DNA of 20,000 nt from Rhizaria sp. SCN 62-66 (lineage: Eukaryota). The notes under the pieces are model-generated. The model did not search any database. It was given only the letters and a program-made list of their open reading frames with translations, and was not told the origin of the DNA. This document shows positions 2 to 19,999 of this stretch, piece after piece; position 1 is the stretch's first letter; each line of letters opens with the position of its first letter. Location of the stretch: contig MEDY01000233.1 in assembly GCA_001724265.1 (NCBI GenBank), positions 54,068 through 74,067 of the forward strand, in the 5' to 3' direction. The position numbers and the translations under genes were made by a program.

Positions 2-745
2 GTCAAGGCCGAGCCACGGCTCCAATTCGACACACCCGAAGGCCTGACATGCAATTCAGATGATGAGCGTGCTGCCACCGTAGCAAAAGACACTAAAAAG
101 AGCTCTTATGAGTGCAGCATGAGCGGGAACTGCTTCAAGCTTGCACGTGATAATTCACACATGGAACTCTTACATACTGACTTGCACTTGCAACCACGCG
201 TGCATTCTCTTGTTGCGTCTACAATCACGACTCAGTTACCCAATGACTGCGCAAGACTGGCATCTTCCGGCAGCGTATTTTCTGTCACAGCATCTGGTAA
301 ATTCAATGAATCTAACTCTTTCTCCACTGGTGCTGACTTTGACTTCGCTGCGGATGTCACTGATGCGACTCTAGCAAGCACAATTGCTCTAAGTGTTACT
401 TGTGCTCCTGATCAATCTTTTGCAAACATCCCAGATGAATTGACGCTACCAGATCAAATTTCCCCGGCAAATGTTGTGATTGCTAGCGCTATGACTGCAA
501 TATCACAAGACAACGAGCAAAACGACCCCGAGTCGTGCAGTCGCCATCACATTGCATACGGCGTCGATGTGACGGCTGTGTCGCACTCCGACGACAGCGA
601 TGACGATGAAGATAACCACATGGCTGATTCTGCTGCTCAAATCCGGTACTATGACAATGACGCTTTGTGGGATGGGGACGATGACTACGGCCGGTCTTCA
701 GGGGACGAAATCTCGGTCAGCCATCTGCGCGTCCACTTTCGCTGA
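2..745 (+). CDS. 3' end of an unidentified protein (Ser/Asp-rich, probably disordered acidic C-terminus), 5'-truncated
   Basis: The frame of ORF 119-745 is open back to position 2 (VKAEPRLQFDTPEGLTCNSDDERAAT...). It ends at TGA 743-745 and is followed within about 35 nt by a shift to AT/T-rich sequence. No domain recognised. Confidence 0.6.
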   Translation, partial: VKAEPRLQFDTPEGLTCNSDDERAATVAKDTKKSSYECSMSGNCFKLARDNSHMELLHTDLHLQPRVHSLVASTITTQLPNDCARLASSGSVFSVTASGKFNESNSFSTGADFDFAADVTDATLASTIALSVTCAPDQSFANIPDELTLPDQISPANVVIASAMTAISQDNEQNDPESCSRHHIAYGVDVTAVSHSDDSDDDEDNHMADSAAQIRYYDNDALWDGDDDYGRSSGDEISVSHLRVHFR

Positions 746-1996
746 GCACTGAAATACGCCGTGTCGCATGACTTGCGATGAAAATAAGTTTCTTCACAAC
801 TAGTCGGATCTATTTTAATATGTTTCTTTTATTTTTAATTGTTTTTATTACTTTCACCACGATTGAATACTCTTACATGTATCTTCATTTTCGTATGAAC
901 CATGTTGCTCATGAGCGACCTATTTGCAAAGACGCATTACGAGGGTTTGTCGTTCTTGAATCACCATACTAGTAATCATTATGTCAATATCTTCTCATTA
1001 ATCAGTGTCCGCAACGCTTGCATTAGCGCGTGATCGTACACTTCACTCTATCTTGTCGTTTGCGTCGTCGATGCTGTGGTTCTGTTTGTGAACAGTCAGT
1101 CACTGATTGCAAAAGAATCAGATCACGAACACGCCTGCGCTTGCTCTTCGAACTCGTCCAGTCTACTTCTGTGACATACTATGTTTTCTATAGACACTAT
1201 GACGAGTTTCTCTTTAAAGGAACATTCCCATAATTAGCGGTGCGTTTTATCTTAGACGCTATCAAGAATAGCGACTGCCCGCTTACTACTTTAAACCACT
1301 TCGCTTCAATAAACAAAAGCAACGTTTGACAAAAGATATATTGGAATTCACTTAAATATAAGGTTTAAAAAGTGATCACACAACCCGGAAGTTGAGATAC
1401 GTTCATATTTATTAAAATAAGCATGCATTTGAATGCGTGAGAACAATACGTCACTTATTTGCGACGTAGGAGCTGATGAAAAAACGCGTTTTAGTGTCTA
1501 TACAGAGTGATGCTCTCCTGATGACGGCGTTTCGCGCATCACCTTCAAACAAAACAGATGAAGATTGGCTGTGATGGCGGATGAGCCGTGGGTGTGAGAA
1601 AAAGAAAACAATCAAAAAGTCGATAAATCAATGAAAATGCAGCCCATATGAACAAGTTAACGTGATTATGTGGGTTGAAAAAGAAAACAAACACAATGTA
1701 ACGACGAAGCAGTAAACTTGTTAAGTTTTAGGTAGTGATACTGGAGCATATGAACTCGTGGCTTGAGATAAGTTGAGACTCGCACACTTAGCAAAAGTGG
1801 CACAACTTGGCAACTTGGTGAGAGATAATACGACGGCAAGTTTAAATACATAAGTACATCAAAACCTAAAACATTGCTAAAAATAAAACAAATAATAACA
1901 TAAAGTACGTGACGTGTTACGAAAACGCAAAAAAAAAGAAAAGAAGCAAAAACAACAACAAAAAACAAAAACACAACAACGGCCGATTCGCAGTGT
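746..1996. other. AT-rich intergenic region, probably two convergent 3' UTRs
   Basis: GC is clearly lower than in the flanking CDSs. The plus strand is T-rich at about 790-1260 and A-rich at about 1300-1980, so each gene is followed by U-rich sequence on its own sense strand. Confidence 0.65.
1878..1980 (-). promoter_or_regulatory. U/GU-rich tract directly after the TAA stop
   Basis: Minus strand reads GTTGTTGTGTTTTTGTTTTTTGTTGTTGTTTTTGCTTCTTTTCTTTTTTTTTGCGTTTTC, starting about 16 nt after TAA. Its function (3' processing or stability) is inferred. Confidence 0.4.
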
Positions 1997-4900
1997 TTAC
2001 TGATTCGGTTGTTCACGCCGTTGCTGCCACTCACGCTTCTGTTGCTGCTTGCGTAGTTTCTGCAGCCTAGACAAATCAGCCATTGCTAGCGGTGTCTGGC
2101 CTTCGCCACTTTGTCCGGAAGACCCTGAGCTGGTGCCCGAATGCGTAGCTGAGGGACTCGTGGGCGACAAGCTCGCAGTTGACGCGCTAACAGTCGTCGC
2201 AGATGCAGACGCAGAAGAGCTACTGGGTGACGCGCGCGACATTTGCGCGTTCACACGCACGTCGACCCCGCCCACGGTCATCACGCTAGAGCCGCGTAGT
2301 CTACCGGAAACGGGGCCTCTGACGGGTGCTGTCGTCGCAGAAGACGCGGCAGACTCAACAGACACGGCAGTGTGTTTAGATTGAGGTGATGAGACAGAGT
2401 CTGTGTCTTGCGAGACAGGTGAGGAGGAAGAAATTTTTAAGCCGATGAACGCCTGCGTGTTTGCGGACGTAGCAGGTTTAGCTGTTTCAGCCACAGCGTA
2501 AGAGCAAATACCTGAGTGAGTGGTGGCGTTCTGTAGTGCCGTCAGTGCGGTTTGAGCCTCAGCGTCAATGTGCGGCTGCGTCGCCTCAAGCTCGCGCTCA
2601 ACATCCACAATGTGCACAATGTGCTGCGAGGGAGGCTCGGCCTGGTACAGTGGAGGAAGCTGTTGTGAGATGTCGTCGGGGCTGTTGCTATCACCACCGG
2701 CAAGGTGAGAAAATCCTCTAATCACAATCGGCTAAGACTCCAACTGCGACTGCAGCTGGGAAAGTAACTTCACACGAGGAGACGGTACCATTTGCTGGTG
2801 CTGTTGCTCTGTCGCAGTCTCACCTTTAACAAGAGCATGGTCCGTTACAACGGGCTCAGTGATAGAAGCAGAACAGTGTGATTGAGGAATGACAGGAACA
2901 AACCCTAGATTCGCGTTTGACTCAGGGCCACCGCTAGAAGCAGCATTCAAATTGTTGTCGCTACCACTGAGTCCGCCTTCCTGGGCTTGCTGGCGCAGAA
3001 GCAGATCAATAAGCTGGATGCGAAGCTGCTGCTGCGGGCTCAACGTCGGCATCGGCTGCTGCTGTTGCACTCGCTGCAGTTGATAAAGCTGTTGTTGTTG
3101 TTGATGATAATACATCTGTTGTTGTTGCTGTTGTTTTTGTTGTTGTAGTTGATCTAGCTGTTGAAGGATCACCTGCTGCTGCACGAACTGTGCTGCGATG
3201 GCGTTGTATTGCGCCAGGTAATGCTGCATCTGATGGTCTGTCGGCTGACCGTTTCTCTCATCCATAAACGACGTTAGTGGTGGCGGCATTGGAAATGGCG
3301 TGCCACCGTTCATCGCTCCATCTGCAGGAGCGTCGCCGGGTCCCCACGCCTGCGCGTACGGGCCGGGGCTACTGCCGCCTGGAGCGACGCCGGAAATAGC
3401 ATGTATCACAGCATCGTTATTCGTGATATTATTGTTGCTGGGGTTCTGTTCTGCGATCGAACCAAGAGGAACGGGAGCAGCACCGCCGCCTGACTTGATG
3501 CGAGACCGGCTCCAGGACCTGGCCACACCACGACGTGCGCCAACGTTGTTTGATCCAGCGGCGCGCCCACGTGCATCAACGCCGCCGTTAACAAGCTTAT
3601 TGCTACCGGGCAGCCGGCGCGAGTCCGCGCCGGTCCCCAGCAGTGTCGCACGCAAGGCGGACGGAGACGGTGCCTCGGGGTCATCCAGCTCCAGCCCTGA
3701 AAAGGAGAGCAGTGGCAGCGGCGCAAAAGCGGGCACGGTTTGGACAACGCGCGCGGTCGTTTGTGAGAGCTTCAGTGGCGCCCAGCCCCATGAAGCCGTG
3801 TTAGGGTCAGTTGCCGTGGCCTTGGCGCTAGACAACGACGCCTTGTTCCCCGAACCTGTGCCTGCGCCTGTCGCCACGGTTGTTCCCACACCTGCGCCAG
3901 AACTGAGGCGGTCACGCGCGCAACGCGGCGCGGGAAGACGGCGGCTCGCCGCGTGGACAACCTTGGTGCAGGTGGGGTTGCCGTTCGTGTCCACAGCGCT
4001 GCGGCTCGAGCGCGAAGAGCTGCTGTCGCTGCCGCTGTGACGCGCGTTAGGATTGTCGAGCACACGGACCTTCCAAAGAACCTCCTCTGCGTTGTTGGGA
4101 CCAACGTTGCCCGTGGTCGTGACGGTGCCGCGCGTGCGGCCGCGCACACGCATCGCCCGCAGCTGCGCCAGCACGCGCTCGCGCGCAAGCAGGATCACGG
4201 CGCGGCGGCGCTCGCGCATCTCGCGGACGATCTCGCGGCGCCGGCGGCCGTGGAGCCGCATGCGGATGTGCGCAGCGCAGCCCGCAAAGACCGCGACAGT
4301 CGACAGCAGCAGTGGCGTGGCGACAAACCACTCGATCACAATGCCGATGAGTGCGCCGAGACCCCACATCCACACGCCCGAAGAGCCATCGCGCACGGAA
4401 AGGCGCACAGAGAACACAAGTGCGAGCAGGATAGCCACAACGATGACAAACGTGACAAAAGTCGTCTGCAACACCAACGTCGGCAATAGTGCCCATATAA
4501 AGCAGCTGTCGCGCTGCAGCTTCTGTGCCGAAGGTGTATCAGAGAGAGTAGTCGTAGTTTCCTCTTCTGGCGTAGGTGCCCTGGCGTTAGAAAAACCACG
4601 CTGCCTCTGCTGCGTCGCAGAGGATCCACTGCCGCCAGCGTGCTGCTGCGTGGACCGATGGGTATCACGCTGCTGGCGAGTGCGAGCACGGCAACAGAAA
4701 CGCTTATTGCCACTGCGCCGGCTGGGACGTGGTGATGCTGGGGTTGGGGTCGGAACAGCCGACGTGCTTGCGCTGCTGCTGTGCGCAAGGATCTCATTGG
4801 CGCTCGTAGAGGATACCATTGTGGCGCGGGCATCGGCAGCAAAATCATCCTCATGATCCTCCTGGCAGTCCTGAGCCGACGTTGAAGCAGAAACAGAGAA

Positions 4901-7900
4901 GGCTGCACTCTCGTTCGTGTAAGGTTTCGGGTCAACAAAGCGCTCGTAGCAGCGCAGCACGTGTGCGGGATCAACAGCGACTAAAATCATAAGCGCACGC
5001 TCAATGAGTGCTTCCTCGCGCTGACGTTGCGTCAGCTGTTCCTGCAACTCCTTACCAGCGCCATTGCGCGCGCCGACGCCGCAGAGTGGTAGTCCGTTGT
5101 AACAAGAGGCCAAAGCGCGCTCGCTGAGACTGGGGCCCAGCTCGACAGAACGTATCAAAACGCCGTCGCGGCGACGGTGGCGGCGTGCACGTGCGGCCGC
5201 AGCAACGGCGTCGCGACGTGCGCCAGTTACTGTCGACACGGTGATAAACGTCCCCGGAAGCGAGCCGACAACTGCGGTCCGGTCGGCTGAAGGCAGCCCA
5301 ACATTAAGGCTCAAACCGTTCGCGAACGCAGCAGCAGCAGCCGCAGCGGTTGCTGCAGCTGCGGTGTTTGCATCTTTGTTCGCAGGGAACGCCTTGTTTC
5401 GCCTGCTATTCGATGTCGCATTCTGGTGATGTGGCGATGTCGCTGCGGTTGCCGCAATTTGCACATCTTCCTCATTGTCACTCCCACTGCTGCTCGAGTT
5501 CAGGTCTTCGCTCAAGCCCGTGAGCGACGCATGCCCCCGGTATCGTTGGCCCGCACGCACGGCAGCGCTGCGACTCAAAGCGTTGTCGCCATAGAGTATC
5601 GCCAGCGGCAGCACACGCAAACTGCGCTGTAGCAGTCGCTCGCGTGCAAACCGTCCGACAAGGTGCTTGGGTAGAGTTGTGCCGGCGGTCATAGCTGCAG
5701 CGGCAGCAGCAGTGCCGCGACCGCAAGCTGCCGTCGGGCGCGGGACATCTTCTGAGGAGTGGGATGAAGGCGCGTCGGGGCTAGTGTCGTTACTAGAGTT
5801 GCTGTTTTGTTGCGCATTCGCGTTTGCAGCAGAAACAGCAGCAGCACTGGACACTGTCACAAAAGCTTCATGACTGATCGCGGCGTTACTCTCGGGCGGA
5901 ATTGTGATCACATGCGCGCCCTTGACAAAAGGTGTCGGCGCCGCAGTGGACGTGTTGGCCTTGGTGGAAATAACCACCATTTGACGCATTGCACCTGGAG
6001 GGCTCGGTGCGGGCGAACCAGGCTCACTGTTTTGTCCACTGCTGCTGCTGGCAGCGGGTAACGAGTCGCTGCTGCTGGTTGTGGGCACACCGTCGCTGCC
6101 GACGTCGTCGCTCACTCCGGTGCCACTGTTTTCAGTGGTTCCTGTAGGCGAATCTAATGTACTGGCAACAACTTCTTCACTAAGTCGTGTCGTTTGTCCC
6201 TGCTGACGCTGCTGTTGTTTTTGCTGCTGCTGCTGCTGCTGCTGCAACGTGCGCTCCTCGAAAGTTCCACGTGCATGTTGGTTCGCCCTGCGACGTCGGC
6301 TACGTGAGAACTGGCGCTGCGGCTTCCACGCGCCTGCCGCAACGGGGCCGCCTGGAGTCACGGAAGAGCCTGAAGACGAAAAGTAAGATGAGGTTGACGA
6401 AGATTTCGATGATGATGAGGAGGAAGATGATGATGACGACGACGAGGAGGAGGAGGAGGAGACTGCACCTGCAGCGCGGTTCAATGCAGCGCGAGCGCGG
6501 CGGGCATGTCGCGAGGTGATCTTGAGATTGTCATAAACTCCGATCGCTGCAATCTCAGCCAAGGTAGCGGGCGCGGAACTTGTGGCGCCCGTCGAGGAAG
6601 CAGCCATAAGACGGTTGAGCTCGCGGGCAGCATTGGGAATCTCATGCGGTGTCGGCCGCCAACGAGCAGCGTACGATAACACGTGCAACAGCTCGAATGC
6701 GCGCGAGTTTCGCGATTGCATCGCTGCCTGCAGTAGACATGGTTCGGACTCTGAGATACTGCGAGCCGAAGGATGGCCACTGGCCACAAACCCAACATTA
6801 GAGCTTGTTCCAGAGAGGTTCATTTGACTCGAGTCCACTGGAGACTGAGCGTGACGACCAGCCGCAACTGCTATCGCCGCCGTGATGCGCGCAGCAGGGC
6901 CAACGCAGAGCGTAACCCAGCCAAGCTTGCGGTGAGGTCCTGCCGCAGACGCGAGGGCTACAGCACGAGCTCGGGCAGAGCAAGTGCCGCATGCGCACTG
7001 CAGATGCCGACTAATAGTGTCTTCAGCCGCAGCGGCAGCGGTATTAAGACTGTTGACACGCACAAAAGGCATCGCGATGTCAGACGAACCCTGTCGTCGC
7101 AAAGCGGTGTTTCCAGCGGCACTCTTCTTTGGTTCAGGTTGTTTGGGGCGCTTGTACAGGACAAGAGGCAGCTCCATCTTAGGGAAAAAACTATTGCTGT
7201 ACTGGCCAGAGACTGTTTCTGGAATGACACCTCCACAATAGTTCACAAAGGCGACTTGCTCGGCGTAGTATCGAACAAAGTTTTCTGCACGCTTGATGTT
7301 TGAGGTTCGCAACACACAGAGAAGAATTTGCGACAGGAGCGATACAAAAAGTGAGATAATGGCGGCAGCGACAAAAATACGCATGATGGTTTCTTCGGCA
7401 GAAAATGGCTCTGCACTGGAGCTAAAGAGAAACAGCAGCACACACGCCGCATATGCAAGTGCACCCACTGTTGTGGCAAGAATGATCACAAAGCGGCGTG
7501 CGAAAGAAATGCGTGACACGGGGGAGCGACGCCAAAGCGAGTATGCGACGTGGCGGCGGCGCATGAGCCGCGAGAGCATGACTGCAATGATGGTACACAG
7601 CGGCTTCTGCCGCGGACCCCAAATCGACGCACTGCTACTACTGACGCGATTACCGTTGGTATTCTTATCATTGTGGTTATCATCAATCTCATCGTCATCA
7701 GCAGCAGATTCATCGCTGTCAAGGTCCGAGTCGTCTGAGTCATCGCGACTGCTGTTCTCGAGCTCGTCAAGCTCGTTCTGCAGCTCACGCCCCAGCGACT
7801 TGGCCGCGGCTGCGAGTGCACTGATGTCAATACTAGCAAAATTACCATCGTTGTCACCCATAGGCACAACACGAGCGTCACGAGCACTATTAGAAGCAGA

Positions 7901-10900
7901 AGCACTGCTATCAAGAGGACCCTTATTATGATCTCGTGAGTTAGTGGTTGCAGAAGCTGAATGTTGCGGGCGCGGTGCGCTGGTGCGCTTGCCGACGAAG
8001 CGAGAGGAGTCGGAAGCCTGCCCCGTGTTGTTCTGAGAAACGTTGTCAAGACGCTGTCGATTCTGTTGCTGCGTATGTTGTTGTTGTTCGGCGTGTTGCA
8101 GCTGTTGCTTCATCACCATATTTTCATGCAGTGTCTGAGCAAAGATCAACTGTTGCTGTAATTGCACCTGCTGATGTTGCTGCTGCTGCTGAAATGCTTG
8201 TTGTTCTTGAGCAGCAATCATTTCAGCTTTCCGTTGACTTGGTGGCGTGGGTGTACGCGAGCCTGCGTCGCTGCAGCTTCGGCTTATTGGCCGCGAGCGC
8301 GAATGCTGGTGCTTGAACATGTTTATCGCGCTGTGAAACAAAGCGTCTGACTGGTAAGCATCTACAGGGCGCACGCGTGAGCGGCCACCTGCTGCAGCGG
8401 CACTAGAGGGAGGAAGTGCAACTGAGCCCGAAGAAGGCCTGATATTCGCCACAGGAGAGTCTGTAGCAGGAGGAACAGACGGTGGCGGCAGAGGACCGTT
8501 CGGTTTAGAGTTTGGGACATCGTCACCTAGATTAGATGCGTCAGCGCCTCCGTTATTATGACTTTTGAGTGAAGTTTGTGGCGGCGCCGAGTGTCCAGTG
8601 TTGCGCACACCAGGACTTTGAACAGGTTGCGCCATTGGCACTGCGAAGGAGTTGCTAGCGCCATGAAGTGGTGACTCTGCAGCGTCTGCCGCAGCTGCCG
8701 CCGCCCTGCTCGCGGCTGCGGCGGCCTTCTTGGCGGAGTTTTCACTCGCAGCTGCCGCGGCAGTGAGCGCAGCCGGGTCTGTCTCGAGAGCCCATGGGTG
8801 GTTCGCAAGGTGCTTTTTGTTCCACTTAAGCGCTGCAAGCAACACACTATTGCGCAGAGCAGCAGCGTCAAAATAGCTCGCCATAAACACAAGAAGCAGA
8901 CAAATTAGCACAACAGCGCCGATTACGATAATAGGTGCAAAGTTGTCCTCTATCATGCTGACTGACACACCAAACACCGTCGCAGGCCCTGCAGCAACCA
9001 CTTCAGCGACAGAGCTGATGACAGCTGCGTATAGTCCCAACCGGGTGCATGCACAGACTGTGCGCGTAGCAGACACGTGTTTCGCAACCGTACAAGAAGT
9101 CAAGTCCCAGTCTTGCGCTGCGCCAGTCTGCGCAGTCACCGCGCCAAGGAGCACATCTGTGACAGAGGCCGTCGCCACCCAATCGCTTGGACGACTCACA
9201 CACGAGACTCGCTCGTGTGATCCAACACTCCGGTGCTCGACGGTCACGTGCAACGGAGTCGACAGTAAAATCCACGAGTCTGAGTCTGGGAAAAAACTCG
9301 TCGCGTTCCGTGGTGCGATCCGAACGGCAGTATAGACAGAAGAGGTGATACTGTCGTTTTTCGAGAGAGTCGCACTGCTTAAGTCAGGATAAAGCACCGT
9401 GTCATCTGTGAAGCTCATCTCAGCAAGCATGTCTTCGGCGGATGCAATTGCAGCGACAGAACCATCATCCTGTGAGTTCACCTTGCGGTCTGCGCTACCA
9501 GAATAAACAAACGCACTCTGAAGCCCAGAACGCATCCATAGTGGCCACTGCACAGAGTCTGTAGTCTTAAACATGAGCTGTCCGAGGAGCTCGGGAGAAA
9601 GGCCCACCGCAGCAAGTTGAGCATCAGTTAATGAGTTTGATTGAGTGCTGTAGCGCACGGGTCCGATTATGTTGTCAAGAGCAAGCGGCGCTAAGGGAAG
9701 CAATAAATTAGGGAATTCTGCTGTACGAAGCGTGGCATCCGGAGCTGTCGTTAGGGTTTTACCAGCAACGCTGCTCGCCGACTTGGTTGCTGCGCTTGTT
9801 GCCCCCGTTTGTGATAATAACGCGCTGCTGGTAAAGAGTGAAAACATGCCACCAGAAAATAACCGGAATACAGCGATATCAGCGCTTTCATCGCCGTCAA
9901 GCGCAAGTGTGGACAAAAAAGACTCAGGGATGGTAAGCGAGCCTGTACTTTCTTCGTTTGCAGGTGTGTTCGTGGTAACTTCCTCATTGTTTACGATACG
10001 CACACCGCTCCAGGTTGCATATGCCTCAGTTAGAGGTCCATCGGTGTTACGCGGGGACAGGCGTGATGTGATATAAGAGGGAGCTTTCTTAACAGACTGA
10101 GTGCTGAAGATCAGGCTTGTGATGTTGTGTTGAGCACTCGTAGCAGCAACGTCGCTGTCGCGCGGTGAAAGGGTTGCATCGATCTTCATCTGAGTCGATG
10201 AACGTAAGAAAGTAAGTGTAACAGCACTATTACCCACAACAATTGGTGCCGAAGTGGTGACCTTTCCGCGCAGCACTAACGCCGTAAGTGACGGCATTAA
10301 GCTCGTAATGTGTTCAACCATCACATCTACTGTCGGACCCAGCGCCATAAAGCCAGAAAGTCGCTGCATGATGTACACACCACTCATGACCGTCGAGAGG
10401 GTTGAGTCCACCAGTACAGCCGTATGACGCGTGCCGCTCTTGGCAAGCGCCATCACGTGACGCTTTTGGTACGCTAGAGCACGCGTCCAGAGACTCCATA
10501 CAGCCGTGAACGCAGACCACGCATCATCAGACGTTGTGGCCGTGTCGGTCCTAAGAGCGAAAATTTCTGTCACGTCCAGAGTTTGCAGCAAGGACACTCC
10601 GGTGAGATTGACGGAAGAGTAATTGCCTGAAAGGACGTCTATCACGCGGAGAACCTCAGCCAACTCGGACTTGAGAACACTTGCCTGACGCACACGTGAT
10701 AAATCGCTTAAATTAGTTGTTGTTACTCCTGTCGTGTTCGTACTAGTCGTGGCGCTACTCGCAGACGAATTAGCAGTCGCAATCGCCGCAAGAGCATTAA
10801 ATTGGCTAACCGCCGAGTACATAATGCTTGAAAAGTAGTTGGCGAGCACGACACCGAGTTGAGTCCCGCTACCCGCAGTCGCAGCGGCTGTGGAGAGTGT

Positions 10901-13900
10901 TGTGCGCGTTGCGGACGATGACTTACCTGCAGGCATCGCAAGCGTCTCCATATCAAATAGCGCGCTCTGCTAACTTCCATAGTTTGCATTTGTAGATGCT
11001 CTGGACATGGTGGGCTGCTCGGGTTGCACAAATGCGTTGGATTCTGAGACTTGAGTCGTGGTGCCAGTATAGAAAGGAATCAATGACCCAATGTGCTCAA
11101 AGCTCGCAAGAAATTCATCAAGCTTGCCGTCAAGAATCTCGTATAGCAGCGTGACAGCAATCGCAAATTGAACACGAGCGCCAAGCTCGCTGGCGGAGGC
11201 TGTTAGCAACAAGAAAGACTGAATAATGTCAGGCGCGCGTTGACTTGCAACAGCAACGCGGGTCTTGGCAAGTAAGGTCTGTAGTCGTTCCTGTTTCAAC
11301 GTGCGTAATGCTGCTGCCTGCTGCTCCTCAGTGCCCGTGGAGTCTACAGTATCAGCGGATGCGGCAGGTAAAGTAAACGTGGTCCATGTGCATACTCCAG
11401 TTGCGTCAACAACTTCCACTAAAATCTGTGCCGCATTAGGATAGAAGGGGAACGAAGCTGTTGGGTCTGCATGAGTTACCTGCAGAAGCATCTTGGGCTG
11501 CCGGCTCACCGCTACTGGGTCAAGCCCAGTCGCAGACAGTACAGTGCTATCAGTCGATTGCGGCATGGACAAGTACCAACGATATTTCAAGGGCAACACG
11601 GTCTCCGCTGTCGTGAAGCCATAACAACGCACATAATATTCCGTTTGGCTCACAGGAATCGAAGAGTCGACCTGGCAGCGGCCAGATGTCGCCTTCGGCG
11701 CAGTTACGATCGTCACAATCGCAGATTCGAGCGCGCCAGGTAAGATTGCGCCCGGAATACGCTTGCTGTTTGCCGCAGTCAAAGCAGCATCAGACGGTCG
11801 TGACTGAGGGTACGCAGAGTCCGCCGCGAAAATGTGCACGCGGAAAGTGTATGTTGTGTCAGGACTTAGCGCGGTCGCGTTGATCACTAGCGTCGTCAGT
11901 GAACGTTTGCCAATAGTCACGTATGGCCACGTGAGATTGAGCTGGCCGGACTCGCACGTCCACAACACGGCGTATCTGCTGTCCTTAGCCGCAACATGCG
12001 CACTCAACTGCAAATTATCCGAAGATGAAAACACGCCTGTCGCGTACTGCGGGTGCGGCACTGCGACAGCGTTCACGTAGTATCCGTAGCCACGCTTGAA
12101 CGTCCCGCCAAGCACTGCAGTAGACACACGCGTTGAGTCAGACGAGGAGTAAGTGGAAGCAGCAAAGTAAATTGACACCCTCGCGTCAGGCTGTTGGCCA
12201 ACGCTTGAGGCACGTTCGGCCTCAGTCTCTACAAGAGTCGCCATGACTTCCGGTGGAAGAGTTAGGATAGACTGCGTAGTCTTGAGCAAATTCGCACCTA
12301 CGCTGCCAGCCGCAAAGCACGAGGCAAAAGTGTTCTGAAGCACTGTCAAGTTGGCAGTGAGTTGTAGCTGCGATAAGGAGGAGTTGGTCGCGAGATCGGT
12401 GGACGTGAGTTTCGAGCGCAAGGTCGCGTTCAAATGAACAAACGTATTGACAAAACTAGGTGAGTGATAACGGCGGAAACACGACCAGCCGTAAAGCAGC
12501 GTATTGGGATTTGTCGTCTCGAGGTCTGGATCACTTGAACCGTCAGCATAAAGAGTCAACTTCTCGTTCGGAAACTGCAAAACACCAGCGTATCCAGTAC
12601 TGTCTCGCGGACGCCCCGACTCTGCAGTCGCAATTTTTTGGTGCTGCCGTTGTCGTGAGGTTGCTGCATCAGACGCTGAGGTGACATACTGAGGAAGAAT
12701 GTTCGAGTCTAATTCGCTGCTCGGGTTCGGCTCATAGACGTAAGTGAATGAGGACTCAAACACTCGCACTGATGGTGACGAGACTGTGCTAACCGCTAAA
12801 ATAGAATTCCTCGTCGGCAAAAAACGCTGCTGCGCAAACGGGTGCAGTGAAAGGCGAACAACAAGAGGCATGCTTTTGACGGTCAGTTTAATCCGCTCGC
12901 AAACAGTCACAAACGTAGAGATCAAGTCTGGAACTCCCGCAGTAACGCAAAATCGAAACCGGTATGACGCGCCAGACGGCAACGTGAAGGGTGGGATGAC
13001 CAAAGTCGACTGGTTCAGCGTCGTGACTGTGGCCGCAAACAGAGCAGGGAGCGTCTCATTGGCGAGTGAACTCCACGAATACGAGATAAGTTGGAGACCT
13101 GACGCCACAGAGCAAGATGACAAGGTCACACGGGGCGTTACTGTAATCGCATCAGCAGCCGCAAAAGTATTGCTGCGGCCAAAGGGGAACGAGATAAGAG
13201 GGCCGTCTGTGCTAAGGCGTGTTATGTTCACAGTGGCGGTGAATTCGGAGCCTAGCCAATTGGTGGCACGGACTGAAAATGTTGCTGTCGTATCAACGTG
13301 GAAGAATGTGTCAAGCTCAGTTGCGTTGAAGCTAATTGAAAACGTGGGAGCAGGGCTTGTGAGAGCAGAAAACGGCGTATTGATGTTTGTCGGTGCCATA
13401 CGGTTAAGGACAATTTTGAACGCGCTAATAGCAGCGCTATTTGAACCATTGCTTACGAGCTCAAAAGCCATCGACGGCATCATGCCGGCATGGCCAATAA
13501 TAGAGCGCACGAGCAATGTCAATGGTGAGCAGTTACCGATTGTTGACGGCGCTGAAAGATCAACAAAGAGCTTCGGCAAAACCGCCGGTGCATGCACTGA
13601 GACTGAAACCTGGGGCATGTACAGAACGAACGCGTCGTCTATCTTGTTGTAGAATGCCGAACTTGTGGCACTCACCGCAGGCTTGATAACGCTGCCCTGC
13701 AGCGTGATCGTTGAAGCTGGCCGCAGACTAAAACCGTAGCCAAGACGAATGCGTAGAACAGACGGGGTGCGCCAGATGCAGCCAGCGGTCTCGGTGTCGC
13801 CCAACATGTCCAGCGTTGTGTTCGCGAGCAAATAGGTACATGTGCGGAACGAACCACCGGTGTCGCGCACAGAGACGCCGTCACTGCCAGTGTAAGTCGG

Positions 13901-16900
13901 CACGGGCTGCATGGTTGGATACGAGAACAAGACGTCGACAAAAGTCCCACCAGTATCAAAACGGGCGTCCGTCACGTTGCTCATTGGGATACACATGATA
14001 TCCTCAGACCAAGTGCCATCCCATGTCACGCCGTCGCCTGAGGCAGCAGAGCTTGCAAGTGCGCGCGAGCAGAGAGTGTAAGAGGTCGGATAAAAGACAA
14101 AACCGCTCTTGCAAGTGATATAAGCCTGTGTTTCAAGAGGAAGGTCGTCAGGACTTTGTGTTGTTGTCGCAGAGCCAATGGTCATTTCAGCAACATCAGA
14201 GTCATCCCAGACTTCGCCGTCATCGCTGACATAAGCAGAACTGCTTGCGGCAGCACGTTGCTGCGAGGCGGCTCTCCCATCTCGGGTTGCAGTGGGCCTT
14301 GCGGGTGCAACAAAATAGCCTAAGGGATAAAGCTCTCCCATGTTACCACCACTACCACCATCGTTCTTCGCACCACCGCTCATTGTAGCCGGGTCTACAA
14401 CAAAGATAGTACTGTTCCACGAAACTGTGTAAGTAATCGAAAGCACACCAAGACGAACACGCATGGGGAGACACACAGGCTTTGATACGCAACTTGGAAC
14501 CTGAGGAGCCCAAGACCCGTCGGCTTGGCAGTAACGGTACATGGCTTCTGCGTTATAGCTGTAGCCAGCAAACTCATAAGAAAAAGAACACCTGTACTTG
14601 ATACGTGTGCCTTCCTCAAGTGTGTGCGTGTTGTAGGATGTGAGTGTACTGGGAATCGACTGAAAGAATGGGATTGCGGGTGCACACACCCTGTTGGGGT
14701 CGGGCTCGCACACTGGCGGCTCTGGTTGCCACTTACCCTCTTCACTGCATGTGATCTTGATGTAGTAATCCTCAGAGTCCTTGATGCGATATCCAGGGTT
14801 GCACACTCGGTAACGAGACCGACCAGGAAAATAGTCAGTGGTAGAATACGAAGATTCGGCTCCGTAGTAGTCACCATCAAAGTAATCACCAAACTGCACA
14901 GACTTGTACACAGACCCGTTCTAACTATTGTACGGAGTACTGCACTCTTTGATGCATAACATCAACGCGTTAGTCGGAGACCAATACGCCATGGACGTTG
15001 TGTTAAAAGTAGAATCAAGAAGGGCTTGTGACTGTGCTGCAGACCGAGATTGAGCAGCACCTGTGCGAAGGGCTTGTTGCCGCTTCCCAGAAACTGTTTC
15101 AAGAGCAGTAGTCTCGTCATATGCACTCAAGGATTGGTAATATTGTGCATCCTTAACTGTTGCAGCAGCGGAATCGTTAAGAGTACAGACAAAGCGAGCG
15201 CGGACAGCGCTATTATCATCAATAACAAGAATGGCTGCGCGTGTGATGCGGCTATCTTCACTCTCGATAACATCAAGTGGTGAGACCAGCAATGCCTTGG
15301 CAGAGTTCATTGGACATAAAAGCGTCATATCTGTGCTTATATCATATAACACGTCTTCTGGGACAGACTTTGAATCCAGTAGTGTCCGCGGCTCAACAAA
15401 AGTGATAACATCGTTAAACTCATCGATAGTAACAGAACCCACAGTGACGACAGTGGCAAACGTCCTAAATCTGCTGCGAGTCGCAGCAACGCGCGGCACG
15501 GAAATAGAAGCACCAGACGTAGAACCACTTGCCATCATCTTCGGTAAAGACGGAGCCCAAAATGAAGCTGCGTTGAACATCTCTGTGTTCTGGTAGTGGA
15601 TATTATTCTCAATCACGCGCGCTGCAACCTCGTCAAAAGAGTCAGTTGAGGAAGAAATATCTGTTGGCTGAATGGGCACCATTGGATACGCCGGAAACGC
15701 CCCACATCCCACCTTTGTGCACTCAAGCCCAGAGCGCTGCACCCAGCCACGGGCGTACACACACTCATACTTGCCAAGAAGATCGGAAGAGCCCGGCTGT
15801 ACAGCGCCTGTTAACGAGTTCACTTTCATTTTTGGAACATAGCACTTTGTGTAGGCAAGCTTCCCTGGACTATCAGGTGACCTATTCTCGTCGTATGGAA
15901 TGCCCGTTGCAGGGTCAGGTGCATACTTCTGCCCAATAGGAGCAAGAAAAGTGTAACACACGTATGGCTGACAAGTTGCAGAGCTTGACGACCATAGCCC
16001 CGTAGATAAGCACTCCATCGTAACATCTTCGATGTACCTTAACACAAAACTGGCCGGGCATGAAAATATCACAGTCGTGCCAACAGTATAGCCAGAACCA
16101 TACGTGTCGCTGACTAGCGTCCCTCTGCGCACAGAGAAGCTTGGCAACGGAGACGTGGTTGTGCCATTGACACCCTTTAGTGGATCGGGGCACTGTACTG
16201 GAACACAGGGCGTCTCCGTCGACCAGCCGTTGGGCCCGCAGACAATGTTCTCAACCGGCACGTAGCGCGCGGAAACGCATGTCGGATAAGCTCGCACAGT
16301 CTCAAGAGTGAGCTGAGTTGCACCTGTGAGAGATGAGTAGGAGATCGATGCGACTGGGAAAACTACTGGCAGAAGACCGCAATTGTAGCGAGGCACGCAG
16401 TTGACAGAAGAAACATTCCATTGATAATCCACTAAGAGCGACGCTGCAGCATATGCGATCGAGCGCAATGCAATTGGCGCAAGAGAAAGACTTGCTGCAG
16501 AATCAAATGCGTTCGTGCTCGAGCGCTCGTCGTCCAAAGGAGTAAGATTATCGAGAGCAGCGTCCATAGAAGAATCTATACCTGTACATAAGAGCGCTGT
16601 TGTTGCTGAAGCCTTGAGCGATTGTGACGAGCACATCGGCATTGCGTACGAGTCAGGAACGCGAGAGTCCGAGTACGAAACTGAGCCGCCAGAGATATCT
16701 GAAAATATCGGACATTGCGTTGTGGGCTCGCATTGGAGCACGGCTGCGTCTTCAATTGCCTGAGCAGTCATACGCACTGATGACACGACTGAAGAAGCCG
16801 TGACAACGGGCAAAGTGGCTGAGACCGAGGCGGTGCTGGGTGCATATGGAGCCCAACCCGCAGCAGTGCAGTTCAGCGTGCCTACAGTCCCCGAAACTGG

Positions 16901-19900
16901 TGAAAACCAAGTCCGACATCCCAGAGCAGCGAATGTGCCGATGGGGTGCAATTCGCGGTCTTCATCATACGTCGCTGTTGTCTCAATCTGTGTGCCAATG
17001 AAAGGAATAACGACTGGCAGTGGCGGGCAGTTCGCCGAGAACAGACAGACGTCAGTCATCGGAACTGTGACAGTTGCACCGGTGTCGCGCTGCCACACGC
17101 CTCTCTCACTGCATGTCAGAGTCTGTTGCGCAAGCGCGAATAAATCGGTAACGCTTGTGTTGGCGCGGCACGAGTATGTCGCACGAGCGCCGACAGGGTA
17201 TCCATTTGCGGGCTTGAACGAGTACGCAGCGCCATTCTCGCCTGGCGCGCTCACAGTCACTATCATCGTCTGGGGCGTCGCAGGCGGCACGTCGCAGAGA
17301 ACGCGCGAGCACGTTGGCGCCATGCCATACCACTTGCCATTCGAAGCGCATTCAACAGTGGTGATATTGGCCTTGTAGCCAGACGGACATGTGATATTGA
17401 GCACGGAACGGAAGGCCGGATACGCAACACCGGTCTGGAACGAGCCCACAGCGGCGGGAATGGCATTATCGATAGTACCACTTAGCAGACACAGCTCGCC
17501 AAGATCGCACTCAGTGTACGGAAAATCAAGCGGGTTAGATATCTCGGATGAGATCACATCGTCAGGATCTAACAAAGAGCCGGCGGGCAGCACATGGTGC
17601 GTCGCAACAACATCGCCAGCGGCATTGACTTCATATACAGTCTCAGTCACATGGGGGCACTGCACAGGGACACAGAGCGGGATGGCGCCATGCCACTGCG
17701 CGTCCGTCATGCACCGCAGCGTGCTCAGCGTGCCCGTGGGTGCCGTAGGGCAGACCTCAGGGTCGCTAGGCCCAGTCAGCGAGACTAAATGTGAGGGCTC
17801 GTAGCCGAGCGCACACGACAAATGCAATGCAGATGTGGCCTGAGGATACGCACGCGTTGTGTTTGTAGGGTCCGCCTGTTTCACAAGAACAAAGCGCGTC
17901 AGAAGCTCTGTGAGTAAGTCGGCGCACTGCGGAATAATACACTGAAAGGCGCTCTCCGCCAGCGGGCCTGACAGCACGAGCACGCCTGACAAAGGATCGC
18001 GCAAGCGCCAAACACCTATCTGTAACGTGGCGTTCAAATGCGATGTCTCTTCAATACACTCATATTGGCGTGAGTTATCGCTCAATGCGTCAACCGGAAT
18101 AGCACCATCCGTGGCAAGACATGAGACTGCAACTACGGTCATAATCTCTAGAGATCCATCCAAAGCAGCTGGTTTTGAGTAAGATATCTCGACGCCCGCA
18201 GTTGCAAGTGAGGCCTCTGTCGTGTTTGTGCCAAATAGTGATGCAGCGGAGAGACACCTGGGCGCAGCAGAGCAAACAGGTGCAGTGCCAGACCACGTAC
18301 CTGTGCTCATACACTGTCGCGACAGCGTTCCCTCAATAAGATGAGTGTTCTCCTTACATTCGTACGTTATGACTGAGTCAGCTAGTGGGTATGAAGCAGT
18401 GTTCGTGTCGCCATTGTGCGCAGAAAGCGTGTAGATAGCGTTTGCTACAGCGTCAGGAATCTCACAGGAAGCAAACGCCGCGGTCGCCGTCGGGACGCAG
18501 AGGCCCAGCACAAACCCAGCGTTGGTACTCACCCACTCCGCAACAACGCCGTTCTGAACACAGGTCCAGCTGATCTCATCATGCTCGCGACCCAGCGCAC
18601 GTGCAGCGCCCTCGCGACATTGCGCGCGTAGCACAGTTCCCAGCGGCATCCCTGTGGAAGAAGCCACCAGCATCGGGTTCGACCACCCACCGAGTGCGAC
18701 TTGACTCACGACGGCGGTGATGTATATAGAGCCGTTGAACGAAGGCTGAAGTGGGCACTCGGGGCGCACGCAAGAAAAGCTGCTCACACCGTCGGTATCG
18801 ACCCATTGAGGCGCTGCAGTGTGTGAAGCAGCAGCGCGCGCTTGACAAGTCGCGTGCAACTCAGCACCGTTCAAGGGCACATACCCGGAAGCACAAGTGT
18901 AGTGCACCTGCGCACCCAGAGGGTACGGGTAGGTGGGATTGACAATGGCACTGACAGCAATGGGCAGCTCAAGTACACTCGCTCTAATGATCACAGCGCT
19001 GCCAGTCGAAGCCGGAAGTGGGGGCACGCCGCAACCAGTGTAGTTGGCGGGTGGCGCAGTGCCGCAGGTCGGAAACACACCGGTCCATGCGCCTTGTGGA
19101 GAGCAGTAAATCGTGCTGGCGCGGAAACTAAGTGGATCATCCACACCGTCGGTTGATAACGCAGAGAATGAGCGCATGCGCAGCATCCTACGACTAATCG
19201 ATGTACTGCTCTGAGAAACATTGTCAGCAATCATCTCAGGAAGGCTTGCAACCTCCTGTGCTAAGTTCACACACGTCAGCGTCGCAGCAGAGCCAACCAA
19301 AGGGTAAGTGTGTGCGGCAATCTTCATCGGAGTCGACGTCACAAGATTGGCAAACTCAGAACCCATGTACAAACATGCAGTTTCTTGCACGCACGTCATG
19401 CAACGGAACTCAGGTGCGGACAGCGGGACCCCTCCAAGGCCAGTTGACAATCGTGCCGTTGTAGAATCATCGTTCCCAGACGCAAGCAAGGATGAGTTGG
19501 TCCAAACAGCGCCAGCGCCGCCAGAGCCTGCAGCTTCGCAGTGCATCCAGAGCGAGCGCGGCGAGCGCGGGCTCGGATACGTCTCTGCAGCACAGCCGAC
19601 TGCGATTGCGCTGCCGACAGAGACAGTGTCGCGATACTTGGTCGGCGCACTGGTCCAAGGCCGCGTGAACGCGCCATTGATGGCTGTGATTGTCATATTT
19701 GCCGCCAGGTCCGGGCGCGCACACTGCAGATCAAGGCACAGCGGCAGCGCGGTCACGTTGTACTTCCACAGACGCGTCTGTAAGTCGCACTCAACGCGAA
19801 CCCAGTCGAGGTCCGAGGGCCGCGACGGGTTGCGGCAGCGCACGTAGACCGACTGGCCAGGCGTGCCGCTAACCGCGCTGGCAGGCTTCATGGTCAAGTC

Positions 19901-19999
19901 AGAGTACGTCACGTTAGAAACAGGCGTAGCGAGCAACACGGCATGGTGCGCAGACATTATCGTGCTGAGCGCGGGACAGCGCGGCGCGACACAGCTGAA
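1997..19999 (-). CDS. Giant polycystin-1/REJ-like membrane receptor (Sushi/CCP array - REJ - GPS - 5 TM - low-complexity tail), 5'-truncated by the window, with 3 in-frame TAG codons
   Basis: The four track ORFs share one frame (all stop coordinates mod 3 = 2) and are joined across single TAGs: ...CSTPYNS*NGSVYK..., ...NANYGS*QSALFDME..., ...SQLES*PIVIRGF.... The frame is open upstream of ATG 19957 to the edge (FSCVAPRCPALSTIM, a Sushi-Sushi linker) and ends QPNQ-TAA. Domain order matches the PKD1/REJ family, recognised by motif rather than by search. Confidence 0.85.
3050..3186 (-). repeat. Coding CAA/CAG-rich poly-Gln tract
   Basis: (TGT/TGC)n on the plus strand, translating as QQQVILQQLDQLQQQKQQQQQQMYYHQQQQQLYQLQRVQQQQP. 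Confidence 0.85.
4280..4502 (-). other. Predicted TM4 and TM5
   Basis: FIWALLPTLVLQTTFVTFVIVVAILLALVFSV and WMWGLGALIGIVIEWFVATPLLLSTVAVFAGC. The second resembles the PKD1-family TM5 pattern W........P. Confidence 0.7.
6200..6246 (-). repeat. Coding poly-Gln tract
   Basis: (CTG)n on the plus strand, translating as QQQQQQQQKQQQRQQ. Confidence 0.85.
6368..6463 (-). repeat. Coding poly-Ser tract
   Basis: (GAG)n/(GAT)n/(GAC)n on the plus strand, encoding a run of about 20 Ser followed by KSSSTSSYFSSSGS. Confidence 0.85.
7310..7560 (-). other. PKD1-like H..S.....S....RR motif plus predicted TM2 and TM3
   Basis: RRRHVAYSLWRRSPVSRISFARRFVIILATTVGALAYAACVLLFLF...IMRIFVAAAIISLFVSLLSQILLCVLR resembles the PKD1-family 'H.W.S......S.FTR.QR' segment preceding TM2. 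Confidence 0.7.
8060..8215 (-). repeat. Coding Gln-rich tract
   Basis: QEQQAFQQQQQHQQVQLQQQ...KQQLQHAEQQQHTQQQN. Confidence 0.8.
8870..8941 (-). other. Predicted TM1
   Basis: FAPIIVIGAVVLICLLLVFMASYF follows the GPS motif and is followed by D, as in PKD1-family TM1. Confidence 0.8.
9020..9202 (-). other. GPS motif (C-terminal part of GAIN domain), degenerate cleavage site
   Basis: CVSRPSDW...QDWDLTSCTVAKHVSATRTVCACTRLGLYAAV matches the C..W...W...C......C.C.HL(T/S).FA consensus, lies about 25 aa before TM1, and has RLG in place of HL(T/S). Confidence 0.75.
11360..13975 (-). other. REJ / PKD-REJ-like beta-sandwich region
   Basis: Motifs typical of REJ modules: FSVRATNWLG, YSWS, LVIPPFTLPSGASYRFRFCV, LTLYADGSSDPD..LLYGWSC, WTC, LVINATALSPDTTYTFRV, P..GRCQV, PLKYRW, VEVVDATG. 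These are preceded by an ARFD..G..V.V.F...C...LG...C.W...LRIRLG module that I associate with protist REJ proteins. Confidence 0.75.
13988..19999 (-). other. Tandem array of about 19 Sushi/CCP/SCR domains, many with large insertions
   Basis: Repeated C..P...G....(Y/F).C..GY.....C...G.W....P.C pattern, e.g. ITYECKENTHLIEGTLSRQCMSTGTWSGTAPVC, NITCPSGYKANITTVECASNGKWYGMAPTC, RVCNPGYRI..ITCSEEGKWQPEPPVC, IKYRCSFSY..RYCQADGSWAPQVPSC. The count was made by eye. Confidence 0.85.

Follow-up and report, generated by a model that had tools for sequence, protein, structure and literature searches.

Introduction

Does UAG still end translation in Rhizaria sp. SCN 62-66? The question is raised by one giant gene on the minus strand of contig MEDY01000233.1 (assembly GCA_001724265.1), within a stretch of 20,000 nucleotides (positions 54,068 to 74,067) that was analyzed as a whole and is called the window here. 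A sequence-only reading of the window had proposed that UAG behaves as a sense codon while UAA and UGA terminate, or else that UAG is read through very efficiently. Decoding of UAG as an amino acid in this lineage is the best reading of the evidence and, in our estimate, a probable one, with glutamine as the most likely meaning judging from the aligned sites. One gene cannot prove a changed genetic code, and other explanations are weighed below where the evidence bears on them.

A giant frame interrupted only by TAG

The minus-strand frame from 1997 to 19999 spans 18,003 bases (6001 codons) and contains three internal stops, every one of them TAG; these are numbered TAG1 to TAG3 along the direction of translation (Table 1). 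Within the 6000 internal codons of the window frame this gene has neither TAA nor TGA and no frameshift, the sole TAA being the codon that closes the frame at 1997-1999. The remaining five reading frames carry 193-296 stops per frame in total, with 32-177 of each kind, and the openness of the minus-strand frame is therefore far beyond chance. GC content at third codon positions (GC3) lies at 0.46-0.68 per block of 500 codons with no break at any TAG, and 3' of the terminal TAA the sequence becomes T-rich, with GC dropping to 0.39 in positions 1001-2000. The stop count, the even composition across the TAGs and the two gene ends beside AT- or T-rich sequence (TAA at 1997 and TGA at 743) agree with what had been claimed from the sequence alone.

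The frame is still open at the right edge of the window. Its first piece is the database open reading frame (ORF) P0012 of 3273 aa on a contig of 81,082 bases, which differs from the window at two residues across the window's 1692 codons and adds 1581 upstream codons, no stop among them, starting with a hydrophobic, signal-peptide-like N-terminus. Window frame and upstream part together make an entire gene of 7581 codons. In the public protein collection this gene lies in pieces, exactly as a standard (table-11) gene caller would cut it: P0002 (1313 aa) is the ORF bounded by TAG1 and TAG2, and P0014 (242 aa), present on six contigs, is the ORF beyond TAG3.

The TAG codons in other data

The TAG codons are not assembly errors. 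The sequencing runs that match the window are bioreactor and wastewater metagenomes with a word depth of 4-9 per run, and TAG2 and TAG3 were seen in runs dated 2016 and 2017. In X3/X4, which represent another sample and year, a contig over 10744-11665 that includes TAG2 shows no difference from the window, and at 2734, the first base of TAG3, no other letter was seen at a depth of 4.2. For TAG1, the ENA protein variants P0008, P0011 and P0012, from three contigs, differ mutually by 3-4 residues and all three end exactly at this codon. X3 and X4 belong to different studies and years yet have identical contig tables, perhaps one data set filed twice, and were counted once for this reason. Runs X5-X8 and X10-X12, each with a small share of the words, were left aside.

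An artefact, whether errors of assembly or short introns that hold the TAGs, is highly improbable, although the low depth of these metagenomes would leave some room for it. Among the joints listed, none takes out a TAG alone; the joints are long skips with anchors of 20-33 bases in low-complexity repeats. The alignment with a related species described below indicates that there is no intron at TAG1 or TAG2, since its proteins P0003 and P0007 run gap-free through both. Neither assembly error nor splicing, two of the pitfalls named with the sense-codon proposal, was found at TAG1 or TAG2. In the polyA RNA run X9, eight places in the gene were listed with small, near-identical contigs, and they lie to either side of both TAG1 and TAG2; zero depth of this run in some bins, intergenic ones included, carries no meaning.

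A related species with breaks elsewhere

Homologs were searched exhaustively with HMMER over window residues 3300-4499 and with word-based searches over two other parts of the protein. One set of close relatives was found, from one related species and all in ENA assemblies; the other matches were weak, Sushi-only and to animal proteins. The relative's proteins are P0009/P0013 (2991 aa, 70-71% identity to the window protein), P0007/P0003 (2080 and 1995 aa, 64%), P0005 (568 aa, 62%) and P0006 (1687 aa, 40% by HMMER, reaching 61% in some blocks). P0003 and P0007 align in frame across TAG1, where they have Asp, and TAG2, where they have Leu, with similar conservation on either side, and P0006 continues past the position of TAG3 and ends at nearly the same C-terminal point as the window protein. 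Both TAG1 and TAG2 are embedded in the conserved coding sequence of one gene and must therefore be read through if a sensible protein is to result.

The relative's gene is itself in pieces, P0009, P0007 and P0005, with P0009 and P0007 on one contig of 18,668 bases and P0003 and P0005 on one of 32,233 bases. P0009 is homologous up to a residue or two before its end and P0007 restarts 17 codons on; P0003/P0007 likewise stay homologous to within a residue or two of the second break, and P0005 restarts 15 codons past it, at a Met common to both species. The residue before both of these well-defined breaks is Ala. None of the five interruption sites, the three TAGs of the window and the two breaks of the relative, is common to both species. 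The relative was seen as protein only, and scans of JGI metagenome contigs, GTDB genome contigs and IMG/VR returned no DNA from it.

The second break lies opposite CAA, a codon that a single substitution turns into TAA, whereas TAG needs two. This would fit a code change wider than UAG, with UAA and/or UGA also decoded or dual in meaning, for which there are parallels in the codes that read UAR as Gln and in the context-dependent codes of Condylostoma and Blastocrithidia. UAA as terminator is seen at one gene end here, and UGA likewise. Yet no TAA or TGA is read in frame within the 6001 window codons, the 1581 upstream codons hold no stop of any kind, and the TAA at 1997 coincides with both the onset of T-rich non-coding sequence and the end of the relative's P0006. 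We consider a wider change quite unlikely.

Protein architecture and possible leaky termination

Pfam identified Sushi repeats before TAG1 (E=1.1e-26), Sushi together with REJ (PF02010) between TAG1 and TAG2 (E=4.1e-11 and E=1.9e-13, respectively, REJ with 50.3 bits against a cut-off of 25), and after TAG2 only a sub-threshold GPS match (PF01825, 17.4 bits against a cut-off of 22.5). The REJ domain was also found in the relative's P0007. The GPS-like motif is Cys-rich and ends in CACTRLGLY, and the first transmembrane-like segment follows 27 residues further on. Strongly hydrophobic transmembrane-like segments are all located after TAG2, and one weak hydrophobic stretch (residues 335-353) is in the Sushi region. 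Segment 3 contains long low-complexity stretches rich in Q, S and A. Pfam at E<=0.01 detected no PLAT, 7TM or polycystin channel domain in the protein, and in the ESM Atlas the only hits were weak REJ leads for segment 2, scoring 0.82 at best; the plus-strand ORF had none there. Taken together, the predicted gene product would be a giant surface protein with a signal peptide, many Sushi repeats, REJ, a GPS-like motif and about five transmembrane segments. With the signal peptide in the first ORF and the anchors after TAG2, a product ending at TAG1 or TAG2 would lack a membrane anchor. The earlier argument that the order Sushi-REJ-GPS-transmembrane is coherent only with TAG1 and TAG2 translated was upheld by the Pfam matches and hydrophobic segments, with GPS below threshold.

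One Sushi-like module (14708-14944) spans TAG1, its first cysteine before the TAG and the other three after it. The Pfam Sushi match was not extended when TAG1 was read as Q; a long insert makes it begin at profile position 14 with or without this reading. An AlphaFold2 model of the module across TAG1 (TAG as Q, two-row alignment) reached a mean pLDDT of 42.4 and was set aside, and a regular-expression pass over the other Sushi modules, aimed at the residue that precedes their NG-like motif, was not informative.

Could UAG still be a stop under the standard code, read through in this gene by a near-cognate tRNA while most of the product is truncated? The rarity of TAG would agree with such leaky termination, as would the base after the stop: C at the +4 position makes a leaky context, and C follows two of the three TAGs. 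However, three successive stops multiply the loss, and what lies beyond TAG2 is conserved and includes the membrane anchor and 61% of all codons in the gene. The three 3' contexts differ (AAC, CAG and CCG), and stretches of 123 bases from each TAG, 120 of them downstream, are no more stably folded than shuffled sequence (z = -0.40, +0.96 and -0.58). The features of programmed stop-codon readthrough were thus absent: there are three stops with differing contexts and no structure beyond shuffled, and most of the protein lies downstream. We regard leaky termination as unlikely.

Serine codons, each ending in T (AGT, AGT and TCT), stand directly before all three TAGs. Such a context is unusual, in that only 30 of the 168 CAG codons of the gene come after T and only 8 of 168 after Ser. 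The pattern could be a signature of C-to-T change in a TpC context, which would fit nonsense mutation, or an effect of context on decoding, which would speak for leaky termination.

Strain differences and possible nonsense alleles

Between run X2 and the window, about 0.4% of sites differ. The counts given here are from the best-supported differences listed, with 57 further differences beyond these. An A>G change at 2734 (plus strand) makes TAG3 a CAG (Gln) codon in X2. Within the ORF, 24 differences were listed, 12 synonymous and 12 nonsynonymous, the TAG/CAG site among the latter; without this site 12 of 23 are synonymous, compared with a neutral expectation of 25-30% (P=0.005-0.019). The only indel listed is an additional CAG at 4694 in a poly-Gln tract, which has three bases and keeps the frame. 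The strain differences show purifying selection.

These data bear on the possibility that the TAGs are recent nonsense alleles which truncate the protein under the standard code, the gene being in decay or dispensable in this strain. With TAG3 present as CAG in X2, at least one of the TAGs is a C/T difference of recent origin, and the TAGs are very rare and sit at poorly conserved positions. From the codon content of the gene, a random substitution creates a stop in about 3% of cases, and 46-49% of such stops are TAG, so that three random nonsense mutations would all be TAG with P of about 0.10-0.12. That all three stops are TAG is therefore weak evidence by itself, and the strong argument that the sequence-only reading had made of it has to be toned down. 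By count alone, a pseudogene confined to the strain would fit.

On the other hand, marks of a pseudogene were absent: there is no frameshift in 7581 codons, the sole listed indel is of three bases, and synonymous changes are in excess among the listed differences. TAG1 is common to three variants, and TAG2 and TAG3 are found in the 2016 and 2017 runs. The relative is interrupted at other places and yet has kept ORFs of 2991, 2080, 568 and 1687 aa at 40-71% identity; its breaks being independent, decay would have to run parallel in two species. Nonsense alleles are also unlikely, though marginally the likeliest of the rivals considered here.

UAG as a probable but rare glutamine codon

Several observations favor glutamine as the meaning of UAG. 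TAG3 alternates with CAG between strains, the relative's breaks oppose Gln and Glu, and a one-step tRNA route to UAG decoding as Gln is described for Iotanema (PMC5304391). Across the five stops the aligned residues read D, L, Q (strain), E and Q, a set that fits Gln or Glu better than Leu in our own BLOSUM62 tally. At TAG1 and TAG2 the relative's Asp and Leu fall where conservation is low, and they cannot decide what UAG means.

A number of points weigh against UAG as a sense codon. The case is built on a single gene, in which the TAG density of 3 in 7581 codons (about 0.4 per 1000 codons) is far below the per-gene counts given for exLh and Iotanema (PMC5304391). TAG1 and TAG2 oppose D and L, not Gln, and in X2 both lie outside the differences listed. 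The relative's stops, known from proteins alone, could be TAG, TAA, TGA or frameshifts. No tRNA gene lies within the window, and none of the X9 polyA RNA contigs listed spans a TAG. Finally, three stops are about the neutral yield over a divergence like that between X1 and X2, and the chance of 10-12% that three nonsense mutations would all be TAG belongs here too.

On balance, the proposed UAG-only reassignment stands in part. The TAGs are real and recurrent, two of them lie in conserved coding sequence and a sister strain has CAG at the third; a genome-wide and UAG-only scope is not established, and the terminators seen are a sample of two, TAA at one gene end and TGA at one. If UAG is decoded, the ribosome of this organism would insert an amino acid at UAG, presumably by means of a tRNA with anticodon CUA derived from tRNA-Gln(CUG), with recognition of UAG by eRF1 weakened and UAA and UGA still terminating; such decoding may extend genome-wide. 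UAG would then be a rare and probably disfavored codon here. With TAG so rare and no site among the five common to both species, decoding may be young, inefficient or still ambiguous. We propose more tentatively, as a possibility that falls somewhat short of even, that the two related, uncultured wastewater eukaryotes represent an unrecognized lineage early in the capture of UAG for Gln, with rare sites of fast turnover and with UAA and UGA as stops.

Comparison with known systems

Macronuclear DNA of ciliates is AT-rich and often arranged in small chromosomes. In contrast, the coding part of the window has 52-62% GC and is found on an 81-kb contig. UAG uncoupled from UAA, as it would be here, is also a feature of phyllopharyngean ciliates, for which UAG-only reassignments are reported (PMC11687900).

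The closest parallel in code is with Iotanema spirale (Fornicata), in which, according to PMC5304391, UAG is Gln, UAA and UGA are stops, and 204 in-frame UAG occur in 126 genes. As in that organism, only UAG was found in frame, UAA and UGA were seen as terminators (one gene end each), and Gln is the best-fitting meaning; the tRNA-Gln(CUA) predicted there, one base from tRNA-Gln(CUG), is like the one suggested here. Unlike in Iotanema, we have three UAG in one gene of 7581 codons and a meaning drawn from five aligned sites, two of them Gln. In the rhizarian exLh (Sainouroidea), the same paper (PMC5304391) gives UAG as Leu, with 384 UAG in 71 genes, mostly at conserved Leu. Like exLh, the present case would be a UAG-only reassignment in a non-ciliate protist, recognized from in-frame UAG in sequence from a mixed sample. 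Here, however, one of five sites is opposite Leu, and the TAG/CAG polymorphism points away from Leu. A literature search at the level of titles and listings found no wastewater or activated-sludge protist with reassigned UAG.

The protein resembles polycystin-1/REJ and adhesion-GPCR surface proteins in having extracellular repeats, a REJ domain and several transmembrane segments, the first of which comes just after a GPS-like motif. It differs from these in the absence of PLAT, 7TM and polycystin channel domains by Pfam, in a GPS match below threshold and in cytoplasmic parts that are very long and of low complexity.

Other features of the locus

Coordinates are collected in Table 1. The window has no rRNA, tRNA or conserved gene; ARAGORN found no tRNA and Rfam no family in it. 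The plus-strand ORF that ends in the window, a putative gene, has an acidic C-terminus and is without a Pfam family or ESM Atlas relative.

Table 1. Positions of features in the 20,000-nucleotide window and of the relative's breaks aligned to it
Feature	Position	Strand	Remarks
Neighboring ORF, 3' end	2..745	+	No known family; TGA stop at 743-745
AT-rich spacer of two convergent genes	746..1996	.	GC 0.39 in 1001-2000; no tRNA, no Rfam family
TAA, apparent true terminator	1997..1999	-	T-rich non-coding sequence next; relative's P0006 ends at about the homologous place
Segment 4, last 244 codons	2000..2731	-	Relative's P0006 spans it to the same C-terminus
TAG3, codon 5756, context TCT TAG CCG	2732..2734	-	Polymorphic: CAG (Gln) in run X2
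Segment 3, 2745 codons, GPS-like motif 9020-9202	2735..10969	-	GPS sub-threshold; P0005 and P0006 40-62% identical
Segment 3, transmembrane-like segments	8885-8941, 7433-7489, 7334-7390, 4406-4462, 4271-4360	-	Hydrophobicity
Relative's second break (end of P0003/P0007)	opposite 9617..9619, CAA (Gln3461)	-	Alignment
TAG2, codon 3010, context AGT TAG CAG	10970..10972	-	Relative has Leu
Segment 2, 1316 codons, Sushi and REJ (REJ about 11810-12568)	10973..14920	-	Pfam; 64% identity to P0003
TAG1, codon 1693, context AGT TAG AAC	14921..14923	-	Relative has Asp; P0008, P0011 and P0012 all end here
Segment 1, Sushi/CCP repeats, last 1692 codons of the first table-11 ORF (3273 aa)	14924..19999	-	Pfam
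Relative's first break (end of P0009/P0013)	opposite 15887..15889, GAG (Glu1371)	-	Alignment

Low-complexity coding repeats at 5327-5364, 6420-6464 and 8167-8192 (Q-, D/E- and S-rich) draw in contigs that stem from other organisms. Such repeats account for the many long joints and loose ends, and for a spike in depth (67) in the X2 bin 6004-6670; the joints and loose ends are not rearrangements of the giant gene.

At the right edge of the window (19787-19999) and upstream of it (P0012 residues 1512-1652), a run of 141 residues is shared by the two species without a single difference, although identity is 71% overall. Inside this stretch the window differs at two residues from all three conspecific ENA variants, and a contig of X3/X4 with a higher depth (15.1) has 10 differences at 19754-19901. 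Possible causes are extreme constraint, recombination or a chimeric assembly of two co-occurring species.

Significance

To our knowledge, only a handful of nuclear codes give UAG and UAA different meanings, those of exLh, Iotanema and some ciliates. If true, the reading of UAG as an amino acid would add a new example outside the ciliates in which UAG is no longer tied to UAA; if confirmed with Gln as its meaning and UAA and UGA as stops, the code would be that of Iotanema, in a eukaryote with GC-rich coding sequence and no evident intron in this gene. Each further code that splits UAG from UAA tests how eRF1 loses one stop and yet keeps its near twin. There is also a practical side. Because gene callers assume standard stops, public protein collections contain this gene of 7581 codons as at least four separate pieces, and proteins of such organisms would therefore be systematically fragmented in metagenome catalogues. 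A lineage with rare, fast-turnover UAG sites would show codon capture at an early and possibly ambiguous stage, which is predicted by theory and rarely seen.

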